Shown here: piece after piece, positions 45,001 through 51,000 of the stretch
Numbering within the stretch: the stretch's first letter is position 1
How the letters are laid out: every line of letters starts with the position of its first letter
Assembly: GCA_049325595.1 (NCBI GenBank)
Contig: JBMOLF010000001.1
Location: forward strand, 102,857-166,856
Length of the DNA stretch: 64,000 bases
Origin: Candidatus Babelota bacterium
Lineage (GTDB): Bacteria; Babelota; Babeliae; Babelales; Vermiphilaceae
Reading direction: 5' to 3'
Made by a program: the position numbers

Positions 45001-48000
45001 AATCTTAATAAATCCGCAGCTACTGAAAATGTGGCCGTCGGCAAACAGAGAAGTTACAACGAAATTGTTGAATTTTTAGACAGCAACTGGCGCCCAACTA
45101 CCGACACCAATCTCATTGCAATTAAAAAATTAGACCAAGCTTTTGGTAATGTATCTCAAAAAATTAACGCTATTTTAGTAGCTGGCACCAATGGTAAAAG
45201 TTTAACCATTGATTTTGCTACGCAATTGCTTCGCGTTGAAGGATTAAATGTTGGTAGCTTTTACGCGCCGCACATGCTTACCTACAATGAACGTTTTGCA
45301 ATTAACAATGAATTAATTTCAAACAAATCATTTACCGACATTGCAAACGACGTTATTAACATGGTTGAAACATTAGGATTAACTCCTAATTCATTAGAAA
45401 TTTTAACTATGATGGCATTCTTGCATTTTACCGCAAATAATGTTGACGTTGCTTTGCTTGAAGTAAGCGAAGGTAGCAATGCAAATCCAGTAAGCATTTG
45501 TTATCCTAAAATCGCGGCAATAACTCGTGTTACTACCGACGAAGAAAATGCTTCAAAAGAAGTTATCGAAGAAATTTTAAGCATTGTTAAAGAACAAACT
45601 TACGTAGTATCTGCTGATCAAAGCAAATTAAACTTGCAGATTATGCACGACATCGTAAAAGAAAAAAATGGCACCTGGTCAATGCCAATACGTAAATTAG
45701 CGCCTCTTGCCTACCCATACGAACAATTACATGGTCGCTGTGCAGCATTGGCTGAACGTATTGCATCTACCTATGTTAATAGTTTCTCAAACAAAGACGC
45801 TATTGTAGTATCAGGCACCTTGTTAAGCAAACAAAAAGGTCAACGTGGCCGTCCAACTATCGAAGCTAAACGTCATCTTGAACTTAATCCAAAGAAAACT
45901 ATCGACCAATTCTGGAAAGAAACGCAACACACGTTGCCAAATCGTTTCCAATTATTGGATAAAGAAAAACCAAGCATTTTGCTTGATAATGCAAGCAACT
46001 TAGATGCATTTAAAAACTTATTGCTCGGTATTCGCTTATTGCATTACCAACGCCCATTAAAAGGCTTAACTTTGATTATTGGCTGCAATAATTCTGCACT
46101 TGATTTAACTGAGTTCTTAAAACTACTCCGTTACTTCTTCAAAAAAACTTCTGGTCAAGTTATTTTGTGCCCTGTTGAACATGTTCCTGGTCATACTGAC
46201 CTTGGTACTTGGGATGCTGAAAAAGCAACTAACGACATTAAGAGCATGAAGATCAAAGCAAAATCTGCTAAGAACTTCAAAGAAGCGTTTGAAGCAGCTC
46301 AAAAAATGGTTGATGAGCGTAATGGTTTAGTAGTTGTTACCGGATCATCTTCAATCATTTCTGAATACTGGCGCTACAGAGGCATTAAAAAGCTTGATAG
46401 ATAATGATTAATTATATTCTTTCAGCTTTTATAGGCCTATTATTAGGATTTATATACGGACTCTTCTTCTTGTTTCACATAAGAAGAGTCCTTCTTGTTA
46501 AGCACCCTTCTCCTTCACATCAAAATTTGAAAAAAGCTTCACTTATTTCTTTTACTTCCGCCCTTACCCGAATGATAATTTTAGCGGTAATTGCATGGCT
46601 TTTATTAAGAATACCTTCCATAAACTTTGTATTGGTGTTACTCTCATTTTTGGTAACCTTTTGGTTGGTAATACTTAATTATAAGGCCCTTTGGTATGCA
46701 CGGCGGTGACTTACTCTCATCAAAACAAATACAACCTTTTGCAGCATTCAACATAACGCACCCGTTATTGGATGTTAATTACGAAATAGTTTTTTTTACC
46801 TGGCTTATTTTGCTGGCACTTTTAGTGTTTACCCTGCCCGTAAGATATATTTTACAAAATAAAAAAAGCGTTACGCGTTATCTAATACTTGAGTATGTGC
46901 GCTTTTTTGCCGATTTAGTAACGCAGACTATCGGACATTTTTCATTTAATCATTTTGCCTTTGTAACAGCACTCTTTACCTTTATTTTCTTATGTAATAC
47001 ATTCCCTATTGTTCCCTGGGTAGAAGAACCTACTAAAGATTTAAATACTGCATTAGCATTGGGACTTATTTCATTTTTCTACACACAAGTTTACGCCATT
47101 AAAGCAAATGGCTTTAAAGCTTATATTAAAGAATATTTTGCACCATTTTTTTTAATGTTTCCCTTGCACTTGATTAGTAAACTTTCTTCCATTATTTCTA
47201 TTTCATTCCGTTTATGGGGAAATATTTTTGGTGGTGCTACGGTTATGCATATTTTCTTAGAACTTATTAAAGGGCATTTGTTATTTGAAACGCTGGCTCT
47301 TATAAGCGGTCTTAACTTATTGCTTTTACTCTTTTTTGGCATTTTTGAAGGATTTTTACAGGCATTTGTATTTACCATGCTTACCGTAACTTATCTTTCA
47401 ATTGCTTTACAACCAGAAGAATCAGACAAGGAACATGCATGAACGAATTAGCTGGCATTGTGCATTATCTTTCAATTGCTCTTACAGTCGCTCTTAATTC
47501 TACCGGTACTGGTATTGCGCAAGGTATTGCAAGCGGTGCTGCCATTAAAGCAATGGACATTCAACCATCAGCAAAAGACGATATCACCAAAACCGCTGTA
47601 TTAAGCGCTGCATTTATGGAAGGTGCTTCTATAGTTGGTGTCGTAATGGCAATTATGTTATTTATGGAAAATACTATTACCCATAATCCATTTTTTACTG
47701 ATCTTGCAAAAATCGGTATTATTGCCGCTGTTTGTTTGCCCGGTCTTGCAGTAAGCATTGCTTCATCATTACCGGTAAAACAAACGGTAAATGCGCTAGC
47801 ACGTCAGCCTTTTTTTAGCCAAAAGATTACGCAATTAATGATCTTAACGCTCTCAATTATTCAAACACCATTAATTTTAGGTTTTATTGTTGCCATGTTT
47901 ATCAAAAACCAAGCATTGGTAGCAGCAAACTTGAGTGATAGTTTACGATTAATCGGCAGCGGTATTTGTATTGGAGTAGGCAGCATTGGGCCGGCAATCG

Positions 48001-51000
48001 GTCTTGCTCTTTTTGCAGCAACCGCTCTACAAGGATTAGGCATCAATCGTGCCGCCTCAAATAAAATTCTTACTTTCACGTTCATAAGCCAAGCAATTAT
48101 TGAAACACCGGTAATATTCTCGCTCGTGATTGCACTGGCATTATTACTCAGCGGCACACCACCCAATATCGTAAAAGGCGCTGCATTATTTGGTGCTGGA
48201 TTGTGCATGGGCCTAGGTACTATTGCACCCGGTATTAGCTCTGGGCGCACCGCAGCTGCTGCTTGCAAACAAATTGCCTTAAATCCGGCAAACTATGATG
48301 CATTGTCAAAAACCAGTATCTTTGCCCAAGGGGTAATTGATACATCTGCCGTATATGCATTGCTCATTTCGGTTGTATTGATATTTATGATGTAAAATGG
48401 TGCTCACCATAAAATAATAGCGAGCACCTACTTTTTTAAAGCCATATCTCTAGATTATTACGTTTTGAATAATATAAAAGTTTCGCTCTTGTTTTTAACG
48501 TTAGATCTTCATTAAATCTTAGGTCAATTTCACAATTCTTTAGTTGAAATAAGCTTGCCGGCAGTTGACTTAGATTGTTGTCTATTAGACTTAGTTTTTT
48601 TAAATTTCTAAAGTTAACAAATATATTAAATATTTTCTCATTTAAATAATGCAATTGATTATGGTCCAAATACAACCAATTAAGATTTGCTAAACCGTTA
48701 AACGTTCCCTCTTCAAGTCGAGAAAGTAAATTATTTGATATCTTAAGTTCGTTTAACATATTTAATCCACTAAATGCATCCTTATAAATAGTCGTTATCT
48801 TATTCTCGTGCAAATAAAGTTTTTCTAAATTTAATAATCCAACAAAAGTATTTGGATACAAAAAAGTCAGATCATTAAATTGTAATGACAATTTTTGTAA
48901 ATTTAACAATCCTTTAAAAGTTCCTGGTTCTATATAATTAATTCGAGCGCCTGTTAAGTAAAGAGTTCGAAGCTCATTTAAGCCTTCAAAAATTCCTTTT
49001 TTTAAAGTCATCAGTTTATTGCTTGATAAATCTAAACTATAAAGATTACTTATTAACCTAAAAGCACCCGACTCGATAATTTGTAAATTATTATTAGATA
49101 AAGCAAGATACATAATATTTGGAAGATAGCTTAATTCATTCTTTTTTATCTCAATTAACTTATTATCAGCTAAATTTAGGCTTACGATATTGTAGGCATT
49201 ATCGATGCAAGACAATCCAAAAAGGGATGTAATCCCACTTCTATCAATTCTTAGTGTTTTCTGTTCAGAAAATGGAATTAGAAATGAAATACGTTGTACG
49301 AAATCGCTAGTGAAATCTGGGGTTCCTTTTTTTGGCTGACCTTTTTCTAAAATATAATCTGCGATGGTATATTCTTCAGCACTTATACTAATCAAAGTAA
49401 AATAGCGTTTGACCAATTTATAAGAAGACTCTACTAAGTCTCCATATCCAGCTGTTTTGAGTAATTCCTCACTCATTTTCTTAATATTTTTACTATGTAA
49501 TTCTTGGGCAATCTTATAAGCGATATATTTTTCTAGCGGCTCAATTTCTAAATAGTGGGCAGCACGTAACAATTCGCCTTTAAATCGTTGTTGAAGTAAA
49601 GGAACTGTAGCAATTGGGCAACTGGTAAGATTACGAGTAACACTTTGCCACCATGATTCTAAAGCTTTTTTTACTTCTTTGAATGGATAAAAATGAAGCT
49701 CATTTTCTTTACCTTCACAAAGCACTTTTTCTAAAGGAGCTATTAAAGGCATGGCTTGTACTATCGACCCAATTATAAGGGGTTTAATTGAGGTGAGCTC
49801 AAATCGTGTTTGCTCAATGCCTGTTTTTTGTAACTCCGGTTGCAAAAAATCTTTTATCACCGGCGATAACTTCGTAATAAGATCTTTGTTAATTTTAAAT
49901 TCAGTACCATCAGAAGCAACTAAGGTAATGATTTCTCTTTGCTCCATCGCACTGGATAAAGATCCAATTAATAACACAGATAAATACCATAATTGCTTGA
50001 TAAAATTCATTTTATTGAGCTCCTTTTTGCTTCAAAAGTCCTATTATTTCTTGATTGCCAAATTGTTCAGCCATTTGCAAAGGAGTAATGCCACGTTTGT
50101 CTGCTAAGTTAACATCGGCACCAAATTCAATTAATTTTTCAACAGTCGCTTTATTACCAATTTTTATAGCCGAAATAAGCGGTGTAGACGAACCTTGAAA
50201 ATTCACCTCAGCGCCATTTGCAATTATGGTGTCAATTAAGGGTTGCATACTACCATCTCGATTTGCTGCGATTGCTAAAATAAGCGGAGAAGTTGGTGTA
50301 TTAAACGGATTTACCTCTGATCCCGCTGCAATAAGCAATAACGGAAAGTCTATTGCAATTTTCTTAAGTCCTGCCATAAAAATAGCCCACAAAAGCGGCG
50401 TCCAGTTATTTTTGGTATCTTTAATTTCCAGATTAGGTTCTTTGGTAATTAGGTATTTTGCTATGGGTAACTGGGTATTTGCAATCGCAAATATTAAAGG
50501 TGTTGCAGTAACTCCTTCTTCTACCTCGAGCGAACTATCAACCGAAGCACCGCAATCTACCGCTTGGGCAACTTTTGTAAGATCATTTTCCATGAGACCT
50601 TCAATTAACTGCTGTTCAGCATCTTGAATGATCTTGGTTGCGATTTCTTTTACATTACGGCCATTAGCAACAATGCCTATAATCACCAACATCGCGCAAA
50701 AAATAGTTACCTGTGTAAAAATTTTTCTTAGGTTCATAACTACTCCAATAGAAAATTATCCCTTATTATACCTAATAGTATAAACTTTTAATATTTTCTA
50801 ATCGACAATTTTTTATTTTTATTGAAAAAAGGTCAATATAAACATATAAAACTCATTTTTTTATAAAATATTTTTAATTTTTAGATAAGAAGGTATTATT
50901 ATTGCCCTGAAAATACCCCAGATAATGTATTAATCTTTAAACACCTATCCAATTTTCTCTTAAATTTTTCACTTAAGTACAACCATTAGATTATTGCGTT

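Follow-up and report, generated by a model that had tools for sequence, protein, structure and literature searches.

The window analysed was a 64,000-nucleotide stretch of contig JBMOLF010000001.1 from a Candidatus Babelota bacterium (Dependentiae in the following text). On its forward strand lies a three-gene unit, atpI-atpB-c4. The first gene (46404..46709) encodes an atpI-like small membrane protein of 101 aa, assigned from a PF03899 (ATP-synt_I) match with an E value of 7.2e-4 and 20.4 bits, under the cut-off of 25.1; the positionally equivalent ORFs of relatives scored 31.6 and 42.1 bits. The second (46696..47442) is atpB, encoding an F-type subunit a of 248 aa (PF00119, E 1.9e-37; TIGR01131, 112.6 bits against a cut-off of 102.6), and no other PF00119 match occurs in the genome. 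The atpB stop codon overlaps the start of the third gene as ATGA. This third gene (47439..48395) encodes a protein of 318 aa with four fused F-type c-subunit hairpins and eight helices, and is designated c4; c1 denotes a separate one-hairpin c subunit, except in Acetobacterium woodii, where c1 is a two-hairpin protein. A terminator-like hairpin (48399..48428, no strand assigned; 12-pair stem with six G-C pairs, located by consensus scan only) separates c4 from a convergent LRR gene and marks c4 as the final gene of its unit.

The c4 ORF starts with ATG and has no internal stops. PF00137 matched the protein in four stretches (E 6.9e-31, 106.7 bits, cut-off 24), and when all six frames of the genome were searched each hairpin cleared the cut-off alone (41.6, 40.4, 33.6 and 27.3 bits); the only other match was the 85-aa c gene on contig C10. 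The four segments of about 80 aa were aligned with this c1 using L-INS-i. The alignment was gapless and placed E61, Q142, E222 and D301 of c4 and E64 of c1 in one column, with pairwise identities of 14–28%. Hairpin 1 (aa 1–82, 47439..47684) has Q28 in helix 1 and the carboxylate E61 (codon 47619–47621). Hairpin 2 (aa 83–162, 47685..47924) has Q142 instead of a carboxylate (codon 47862–47864) and an R122-Q123-P124 loop. Carboxylates are again present in hairpin 3 (aa 163–241, 47925..48161; E222, codon 48102–48104) and hairpin 4 (aa 242–318, 48162..48392; D301, codon 48339–48341, then T302 and Y306). The AlphaFold2 model (pLDDT 94.8, pTM 0.91) consisted of four helical hairpins, or eight helices. 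At 318 aa the protein departs from the single-hairpin form typical of AtpE (about 70–90 residues), of which the 85-aa C10 gene is a canonical example. c4 is a genuine F-type c subunit with four hairpins, and it is conserved; the preliminary description of such a protein beside an ordinary c subunit was confirmed by the ORF, the fourfold PF00137 match and the shared column.

The c1 gene opens a b'-b-delta-alpha operon on C10, a contig other than that of c4, and is preceded by an AT-rich spacer of about 300 nt. No Pfam ATP-synt_B match was obtained for the two ORFs taken as b' and b, which were assigned by position and size only. One gene each was found for subunits a, alpha, beta, gamma and delta, together with an epsilon-like ORF of 81 aa; the third PF00006 match in the genome was Rho. 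Apart from atpB, the F-type partners are scattered over C10 and C22. These genome-wide subunit counts bear out the earlier claim of a single F-type gene set with a separate c1, and c4 belongs to the only F-type, and only rotary, ATPase of the organism. Two other identities were considered for c4 and rejected. As a V/A-type proteolipid it scored 46 bits against 211 for NF004913 and 36 against 101 for NF004888; no V-type subunit I exceeded the cut-off in the genome (PF01496, 15.5 bits), and the partners are all F-type. As an N-ATPase subunit c it reached 98.8 bits against a TIGR03322 cut-off of 130.85, while subunit a scored 82.6 against 302.1 for TIGR03306.

Earlier figures for the distribution of c4 were reproduced: 735 homologues, the best 120 of them 292–331 aa long, and, at a threshold of E<=1e-20, a match in 253 of the 261 genomes of the phylum and in 188 of the 189 of high quality. 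c1 was detected at E<=1e-12 in 254 of the 261; one high-quality genome (G111, 95% complete) contained no clear c1 (best E 2.0e-10). Mean column identity was 64% for c4 (121 sequences) and 70% for c1 (16 sequences). The key columns of the 121-sequence alignment were also as previously reported, namely E 120 and D 1 in hairpin 1, Q 121 in hairpin 2, E 119 and D 2 in hairpin 3, and D 81 and E 40 in hairpin 4. In hairpin 2 of these nearest homologues Q142, T143, R122, Q123 and P124 were each invariant (121/121); in hairpin 4, T302 was found in 119 and Y306 in all 121. The helix-1 position of hairpin 1 was occupied by E in 63 of the 121 and by Q in 56.

The Gln of hairpin 2, earlier recorded in 121 of 121 aligned sequences, is constant among the nearest 120 homologues only. 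In a hand-picked set of 62 genomes covering 20 of the 21 families, 32 have Q as the key residue, 25 have E, 3 have M, and one each has L and G. E at this position is a feature of more distant families; the carboxylate was kept in 7 of the 20 sampled families, mostly as E-E-E-E, and hairpin 2 would be ion-blind in 12 of the 20. With a hairpin 2 carboxylate in 25 of 62 genomes, three sites per four hairpins cannot be upheld as a phylum trait: the c4 fusion is phylum-wide and the dead hairpin 2 is not. Carboxylates in all four hairpins were seen in 23 of the 62, so the purpose of the fusion, whatever it be, is not site loss as such.

Subunit a was encoded immediately upstream of c4 in all 42 Dependentiae loci examined (gap −20 to +26 nt), with the 4-nt overlap in 21 of them. 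This linkage bears on whether c4 might act outside the working rotor, as an assembly scaffold or as a relic paralogue with another membrane function. Nothing was found directly in favour of that explanation, which is highly improbable given the constant atpB linkage, the conserved carboxylates, which in three or four hairpins occupy exactly the position seen in c subunits, the stalk-contact RQP loop invariant in hairpin 2 of the nearest 121 sequences, the preserved glycine-rich packing helices, and the presence of the A. woodii homologue in a ring by crystal structure (title of PDB 4BEM).

At none of the 42 Dependentiae loci did a single-hairpin ORF lie within about 1.5 kb of c4, and c4 and c1 did not share an operon in this genome or at any of those loci. 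In closed genomes the two genes are far apart, for example at about 829 kb and 130 kb in G246. Two alternative rings, one of c4 and one of c1, might be mounted on one stator according to life stage (e.g. outside or inside the host), switching the ion/ATP ratio or the ion. Separate transcription units would make separate regulation possible, and the site chemistry differs as well, c1 having Q31...E64-T65 and hairpins 3 and 4 of c4 having L or S as the helix-1 residue. This explanation is nonetheless quite improbable, since no regulatory evidence for it was found and since fused and single c genes are adjacent in one operon at 75 of 76 loci from other phyla.

Those loci were identified in a survey outside the Dependentiae, in which 76 of 78 loci with hairpin matches had a c ORF of at least three hairpins (four hairpins in 52, three in 19, five in 3 and six in 2). 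A single-hairpin c gene lay directly downstream of the fused gene (cN) in 75 of the 76; this adjacency suggests that co-expression is ancestral. Uncharacterised subunits of three to six hairpins occur in canonical F-type atpB-cN-c1 operons of Desulfobacterales, Nitrospinaceae, Methylomirabilis, Marinamargulisbacteria, Cloacimonadota and others, further hosts being Latescibacterota, Phycisphaerae, Anaerolineales MAGs and Desulfoferrobacter suflitae DRH4. Operon content was checked with Pfam at three of these loci. Full ATPase operons were present in a Methylomirabilis MAG and in a MAG labelled as Rickettsiales, and the Desulfosarcina locus held atpI-a-c4-c1-b'-b only. In an hhalign comparison the Dependentiae c4 alignment was collinear with that of seven non-Dependentiae c4 proteins over 318 columns (probability 100, E 5.3e-57). 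Both groups have the RQP loop in hairpin 2 (47 of 52 four-hairpin rows from other phyla; 37/42 and 20/21 Dependentiae rows), x-T-P after the key residue of the inner hairpins, ...A-I-Y in the last hairpin, and a single-hairpin c as partner of the fused one. They differ in that the inner-hairpin carboxylates are mostly lost in other phyla (EQQE, EQQQ, EQE, EQQQQQ), whereas Dependentiae c4 proteins keep three or four, and in that helix 1 of c1 carries a second Glu in the other phyla and Q in the Dependentiae. The Dependentiae proteins form a separate clade (SH-aLRT 100), and the gene adjacency has been lost in this phylum: here the fused gene has atpB upstream only, and does not lie between atpB and a single-hairpin c gene. 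Judged from these comparisons, the c4 fusion is not special to the Dependentiae and is part of a family of fused rotor subunits, paired with c1, that is widespread and has been little described. The preliminary view that its design is tied to parasitism or to pumping lost its footing, because free-living anaerobes, among others, have collinear relatives of three to six hairpins in their canonical F1Fo operons.

The best solved sequence match of c4 was c1 of the A. woodii F1Fo ATPase (4BEM_J; phmmer E 1.4e-12, residues 170–316, two hairpins), and 4BEM was also the best fold match of the c4 model (Foldseek E 2.3e-5, rmsd 1.9 A over 158 columns). Hairpin 4 of c4 aligned with the second, Gln-bearing hairpin of the A. 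woodii protein. The ring of that organism is described as nine single hairpins and one two-hairpin c1 (PMC9171764), the motifs of c1 being Q....ET and Q....QT (PMC7911925). Like the c1 of A. woodii and Clostridium aceticum, c4 is F-type, has more than one hairpin per chain, includes one hairpin with Gln for the carboxylate, and has single-hairpin partners. There are four hairpins per chain in Dependentiae c4 against two in A. woodii c1; the dead hairpin is the second in this c4 and the last in A. woodii, and the last Dependentiae hairpin keeps D or E. The c genes are adjacent in one A. woodii operon and split over two loci here. Sodium coupling has been shown for the A. woodii ring, and its F/V-hybrid Na+ enzyme is described as ATP-synthesising, whereas the present organism probably only hydrolyses ATP. 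Since the A. woodii relative works in an ATP-synthesising enzyme, the fused design is not tied to pumping.

The next-best fold matches were archaeal A-type and bacterial or eukaryotic V-type proteolipids (Enterococcus hirae NtpK, 2BL2; yeast and mammalian Vo c and c''), which resemble c4 in being multi-hairpin with fewer sites than hairpins. Covalently fused F-type c subunits have been engineered in Escherichia coli. They have been constructed in Bacillus PS3 as well (PMC8809890). Covalently linked hairpins can thus enter an F-type ring, although those are laboratory constructs and the natural c4 has four diverged hairpins (14–28% identity) with differing loops and site chemistries.

We infer, by analogy, that c4 and c1 share a ring; its stoichiometry, direction of operation and coupling ion are putative too. 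The best overall explanation, which we consider fairly probable, is that c4 functions in the only F-type ATPase of the cell, in a hybrid c4 and c1 ring that would probably act as an ATP-driven pump. One c4, or a few, would co-assemble with several c1. E61, E222 and D301 of hairpins 1, 3 and 4 would each carry an ion, and hairpin 2, with Q142, would move past subunit a without one. For one c4 and n c1, the ring would comprise n+4 hairpins with n+3 sites. The V-ATPase-like gearing first proposed shrinks to about one missing site if each ring has a single c4, and that proposal is weakened to this extent. The separate operons of c4 and c1 at the 42 Dependentiae loci, and genome G111 with its lack of a clear c1, count against a shared ring.

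A predicted complex of c4 with four copies of c1 suggested, weakly, that the two associate. The score was 0.48 (best control 0.00). This is above the mark, which 116 of 157 solved complexes passed along with 2 of 215 mismatches, but in a range (<=0.60) that held only 18 of the 157 and both passing mismatches; agreement between runs was 86% of contacts or more, and the partner pLDDT was 80 or higher. The prediction does not tell a hybrid ring from a homomeric one, and the pass may be memory of the similar solved structure 4BEM.

A ring of c4 only would have 8, 12 or 16 hairpins, depending on whether two, three or four copies assembled, with three sites per four hairpins, and would leave c1 a minor or alternative component. 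If three copies were used, the ratio would drop from 4.0 to 3.0 ions per ATP. The phylum-wide occurrence and strong constraint of c4 (64% mean column identity over 121 sequences) and its position next to subunit a agree with such a ring, as do archaeal A-type c subunits, described with 1, 2, 3 and up to 13 hairpins. However, c1 is equally conserved (254/261; 70% in 16 sequences) and opens the b'-b-delta-alpha operon of the only F-type set; the overlap or abutment of the c4 start with the atpB stop, which suggests translational coupling to a gene for a one-per-complex subunit, argues for few copies; and the one solved relative is described as a 1:9 hybrid. Elsewhere in the family, fused subunits can have as many as five hairpins that lack the carboxylate (E-Q-Q-Q-Q-Q); these always precede c1, and alone would make a nearly ion-blind ring. 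The c4-only ring, which the preliminary description had allowed, is for these reasons unlikely, and the hybrid ring is preferred to it.

Two genes for TLC ATP/ADP translocases were found, and searches of the 95%-complete genome for a complex I antiporter-type subunit (PF00361), haem-copper oxidase (PF00115) and bd oxidase (PF01654) gave no match. Both results support the earlier description of a parasite with no respiratory chain. TM6 genomes have been described as having no electron transport chain, with an ATP synthase that may hydrolyse ATP (Yeoh et al., PMC4776705). The enzyme plausibly runs as an ATP-driven ion pump energising the membrane; this direction is probable because ATP is imported, no respiratory chain was seen, and the epsilon-like 81-aa ORF contains the beta-sandwich domain only. 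The coupling ion was assessed with the sodium motif of the ProAD supplement, [Q/E]...E-[S/T]-[S/T/Q]-x-x-Y. The motif is incomplete in c1 of this genome, where Q31, E64 and T65 are present and G and W follow (E-T-G-L-L-W); some relatives have E-T-S-A-I-Y. c4 has T-S-A-V-Y in hairpin 4 and Q28...E61 in hairpin 1. Under the strict rule the coupling ion of this genome may be H+.

F-type ATPases that combine a multi-hairpin fused c with a single-hairpin c possibly constitute a broad, essentially undescribed class in at least 10 phyla; we advance this tentatively, together with the idea that their rotor is asymmetric by design, with c4 seeding the ring. The Dependentiae would be its cleanest case, since c4 belongs to the only rotary ATPase of the cell. 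Synthesis of c4 would keep pace with that of subunit a, one c4 would seed the ring, and hairpin 2, with its invariant RQP loop and its ion-blindness in 12 of the 20 sampled Dependentiae families, would be a dedicated foot for the gamma-epsilon stalk. If so, the fusion would serve assembly and stalk attachment, and the ion/ATP ratio only secondarily.

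The c4 gene (window 47439-48395, forward strand) formed an uninterrupted reading frame of 318 codons, and its product matched Pfam ATP-synt_C in four stretches (E 6.9e-31). When the genome was searched in six frames, each of the four hairpins scored above the family cut-off separately, and the sole further match was the 85-aa frame of c1, an ordinary single-hairpin c subunit on contig C10. The four c4 segments of about 80 residues, mutually 14-28% identical, were aligned with c1 without gaps, which placed E61, Q142, E222 and D301 of c4 and E64 of c1 in one ion-binding column; the four-hairpin F-type fusion proposed in the preliminary description was thereby confirmed. 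Its homologue counts were also reproduced, with 735 homologues, of which the best 120 had lengths of 292-331 aa, and key columns of E 120 and D 1, Q 121, E 119 and D 2, and D 81 and E 40 among 121 rows. An AlphaFold2 model built from the alignment of 121 homologues consisted of four helical hairpins (pLDDT 94.8, pTM 0.91). The c4 gene is real and strongly conserved; database names for proteins of this type are merely 'F-type H+-transporting ATPase subunit c' and similar.

Directly 5' of c4 lay atpB (PF00119, 1.9e-37), the stop codon of which overlapped the c4 start in the sequence ATGA, and an atpI-like frame was also located on the 5' side (PF03899, below the cut-off). A terminator-like hairpin followed c4, before a convergent leucine-rich-repeat gene (window 48436-50010, reverse strand). 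Its 524-aa product matched LRR_8 in seven stretches (E 2.4e-69), had an N-terminus faintly resembling Skp1/POZ (E 0.092), and is a candidate eukaryote-like host-interaction protein. The neighboring 241-aa frame (window 50012-50737, reverse strand) looked by eye like ankyrin repeats (repeated ...TPL..A...G....V..L...GA.VN...). Upstream, a 469-aa Mur-ligase-like protein (window 44995-46404, forward strand) gave matches slightly below the cut-off to Mur_ligase_C (26.4 bits) and Mur_ligase_M (23.4 bits), and the end of its gene shared one base with the start of the atpI-like gene.

The remaining subunits were found elsewhere in the genome. On contig C10, c1 was followed by frames of 124 and 168 aa in the b' and b positions, then by delta (OSCP, 2.3e-19) and alpha; neither of the two frames matched Pfam ATP-synt_B, and both were assigned to b' and b by position and size. 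Gamma was located on C10 apart from the c1 operon, while beta and an epsilon-like frame were located on contig C22. The epsilon-like product (L012:1492-1737, forward strand) was 81 aa long, scored 25 bits against PF02823 (slightly under the cut-off of 27), and comprised the beta-sandwich domain alone, without the C-terminal helical domain. A V/A-type origin of c4 was rejected on V-type model scores and on the V-type subunit I, for which the genome held no match above the cut-off, and identity with the N-ATPase was rejected on model scores. A second rotary ATPase was likewise rejected, the third ATP-synt_ab match being Rho. Since the genome also held one subunit a gene, its F-type genes amount to a single enzyme with two distinct c genes.

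Within the phylum, 253 of 261 species genomes held a c4 match at E<=1e-20, among them 188 of the 189 of high quality, as previously counted. Matches to c1 at E<=1e-12 were obtained in 254 of the 261, in open frames of about 82-136 codons; the seven genomes missing a match at that threshold were G026, G113, G203, G114, G142, G146 and G111, only the last being of high quality. An atpB homologue stood directly 5' of c4 in all 42 Dependentiae loci examined, with a gap of −20 to +26 nt and a 4-nt overlap in 21. None of these loci carried a single-hairpin c within flanks of about 1.5 kb, so the separation of c4 from c1 is a feature of the phylum; in closed genomes c1 was distant from c4.

The hairpin-2 residue was recorded in 62 genomes, hand-picked and not random, comprising 12 from the window's own family (including its own genome), 30 with weak similarity to the query and 20 covering the remaining families; 20 of the 21 families were represented, f11 being left out. 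The residue was Q in 32 genomes, E in 25, M in three, and L and G in one each. Written as the key residues of hairpins 1-4, the patterns were EQED (27 genomes), EEEE (21), EQEE (4), EMED (3) and EEED (2), with DQED, EEEQ, ELED, EGQE and DESG in one genome each. In seven families (f4, f6, f15, f16, f18, f19 and f21) every genome sampled had a carboxylate at hairpin 2, and Q, M or L was found in twelve (f1, f2, f3, f5, f7-f10, f12, f14, f17 and f20); the single genome sampled from f13 had G. The invariant Gln reported earlier is therefore limited to the nearest relatives, and what is conserved through the phylum is not a lost site but the fused gene together with its c1 partner. A tree was built from c4 sequences, 42 of Dependentiae and 14 from outside; the Dependentiae rows made up one clade (SH-aLRT 100), the basal split of which separated a Q/L/M group (16 rows, SH-aLRT 94) from a mainly E group (26 rows, SH-aLRT 90); given this split, the tree favours neither hairpin-2 state as ancestral.

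Occurrence in other phyla was examined by an exhaustive phmmer search with c4 against 1.84 billion representatives, which returned 574 matches at E<=1e-3; the best 150 included three-, four- and five-hairpin proteins and a single thirteen-hairpin one, their carboxylate patterns differing from that of c4. Seven outside four-hairpin proteins were then used as queries against one genome per prokaryote species, giving 79 loci. Record titles named Desulfobacterales (Desulfosarcina, Desulfococcus, Desulfonema), Nitrospinaceae, Methylomirabilis, Hydrogenedentota, Marinamargulisbacteria, a Rickettsiales-labelled MAG, Cloacimonadota, Latescibacterota, Phycisphaerae, Anaerolineales, Deferrisomatales and the cultured Desulfoferrobacter suflitae DRH4. 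A c frame of at least three hairpins was present in 76 of the 78 loci with hairpin matches (52 of four hairpins; 19 of three, a few of these cut by contig ends; three of five; two of six), and the fusion is thus no oddity specific to the phylum. A single-hairpin c lay directly 3' in 75 of the 76, the remaining locus stopping at a contig edge. By Pfam, the gene order was atpI-a-c3-c1-b'-b-delta-alpha-gamma-beta-epsilon in a Methylomirabilis MAG and a-c3-c1-b-delta-alpha-gamma-beta-epsilon in the Rickettsiales-labelled MAG. The third locus examined with Pfam, in a Desulfosarcina MAG (L026, 4908-8367), carried atpI-a-c4-c1-b'-b followed by an unrelated gene on the opposite strand, so that this operon consists of Fo parts only. 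Outside patterns included EQQE, EQQQ, EQEE, EQE, EQQ, EQQQQ and EQQQQQ, hairpin 2 being Q almost always.

Longer c proteins were also noted. Five F-type hairpins were present in P0232 (434 aa) and in P0182 and P0206 (411 and 406 aa); one of the five-hairpin proteins had EEEEE and two kept only the first carboxylate (EQQQQ). P0229 and its cluster (968 aa) had thirteen hairpins, each with a carboxylate, and showed Trp in place of the expected glycine-rich helix motif (e.g. GLWVWIWEW). These residues look like the product of translating UGA as Trp; the lineage may instead decode UGA as Gly.

Profile-profile comparison of the Dependentiae and outside four-hairpin alignments was collinear over 318 columns (probability 100, E 5.3e-57). 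When hairpin HMMs were cross-scored, Dependentiae hairpin 1 paired with its outside counterpart, as did c1; hairpin 2 paired with the inner hairpins of the outside proteins, and hairpin 4 with their last hairpin and with c1. Hairpin 2 held the canonical RQP loop in both groups: in two sets of Dependentiae rows (37 of 42, 20 of 21) and in 47 of 52 outside rows. Because the units are repeats, some chance of a convergent origin for the two sets of fusions has to be granted; the collinearity, the cross-scores and the loop held in both groups argue for shared ancestry. We read the architecture as commonly inherited, the Dependentiae operon having presumably been split later into c4 and c1.

The textbook F-type rotor is a ring of identical two-helix hairpins, and the hybrid ring of Acetobacterium woodii is regarded as a curiosity. 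The best solved relative of c4 was the two-hairpin subunit of that F1Fo ring, also named c1 (4BEM chain J), which was the top match both by sequence (E 1.4e-12, aligned to hairpins 3-4) and by fold, ahead of E. hirae NtpK and eukaryotic Vo subunits. The A. woodii subunit has Glu in the first hairpin and Gln, followed by T-T-G-I-Y, in the second; D301-T-S-A-V-Y of c4 aligns to this second, Gln-bearing hairpin. A published account describes the A. woodii rotor as nine one-hairpin subunits and one V-type-like subunit with a single site, in an enzyme that makes ATP at low driving force (PMC9171764), and another reports the same gene pair in C. aceticum (PMC7911925).

On balance we lean towards a hybrid ring in which one c4, or a few, sit among several c1 subunits, since the enzyme has a single stator and a single F1, c4 and c1 are both conserved, their genes would ancestrally have been side by side, the solved homologue belongs to a mixed ring, and translation of c4 is coupled to that of the single-copy subunit a gene. 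With one c4, the ring of this genome would be ion-blind at exactly one position, like that of A. woodii. This would shift the gearing much less than the V-like three sites per four hairpins put forward earlier. A c4 chain modelled together with four c1 chains scored 0.48 against 0.00 for the best control (runs agreeing in at least 86% of contacts, partner pLDDT of 80 or more). Passes this low were rare among solved complexes, and the predictor may be reproducing a similar complex already solved; the model lends weak support to c4-c1 association.

The C-terminal helices of epsilon inhibit ATP hydrolysis, and the 81-aa form fits an enzyme unrestrained in that direction. Two ATP/ADP translocase genes of the TLC family lay side by side at C23:8328-11141 (reverse strand), in frames of 465 and 513 codons, and three respiratory marker families gave no match in the 95%-complete genome. 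Yeoh et al. (PMC4776705) state in a passage on the phylum (TM6) that it is without an electron transport chain and that the ATP synthase may hydrolyse ATP. On these grounds the ATP-driven pump suggested previously is plausible; c4 itself is a variant of the hybrid-rotor kind and neither a phylum oddity nor a V-like pump adaptation. The c1 of this genome (L006:5667-5924, contig C10) reads E-T-G-L-L-W after the carboxylate, with two sodium ligands missing by the ProAD rule, while in most same-family relatives (L107-L124) the sequence is E-T-x-A-I-Y, and some carry the complete sodium motif E-T-S-A-I-Y. Ion specificity, as predicted by motif, would thus vary within one family.

A 2026 preprint on rotary ATPase evolution (10.64898/2026.10.01.756066) describes duplication of c as far less common in F-type than in A-type enzymes. 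In a 2024 survey of ring size, the procedure described discarded c sequences longer than 250 aa, and in the ProAD paper (PMC11738941) c/K subunits are sorted by their number of hairpins, with logos for one- and two-hairpin forms only. A literature search found no publication connecting Dependentiae with a fused or hairpin ATP synthase c subunit, nor, among the papers listed, one describing a natural F-type c of at least three hairpins; a 2015 review on the distribution of hybrid rotors could already list such genes. Fused F-type rotor subunits form a broad and apparently undescribed class, of which the Dependentiae are the sole-enzyme case. Across an entire phylum the sole rotary ATPase has a c of four hairpins, and architectures of three to six hairpins recur in canonical F1Fo operons of many phyla. 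Questions made testable are what determines ring composition and the ion/ATP ratio, whether ring assembly is seeded by one fused subunit, and how rotation proceeds in an F-type motor some of whose positions are ion-blind; the natural variants E-Q-E-D and E-E-E-E, with and without a dead hairpin, provide a ready comparison.
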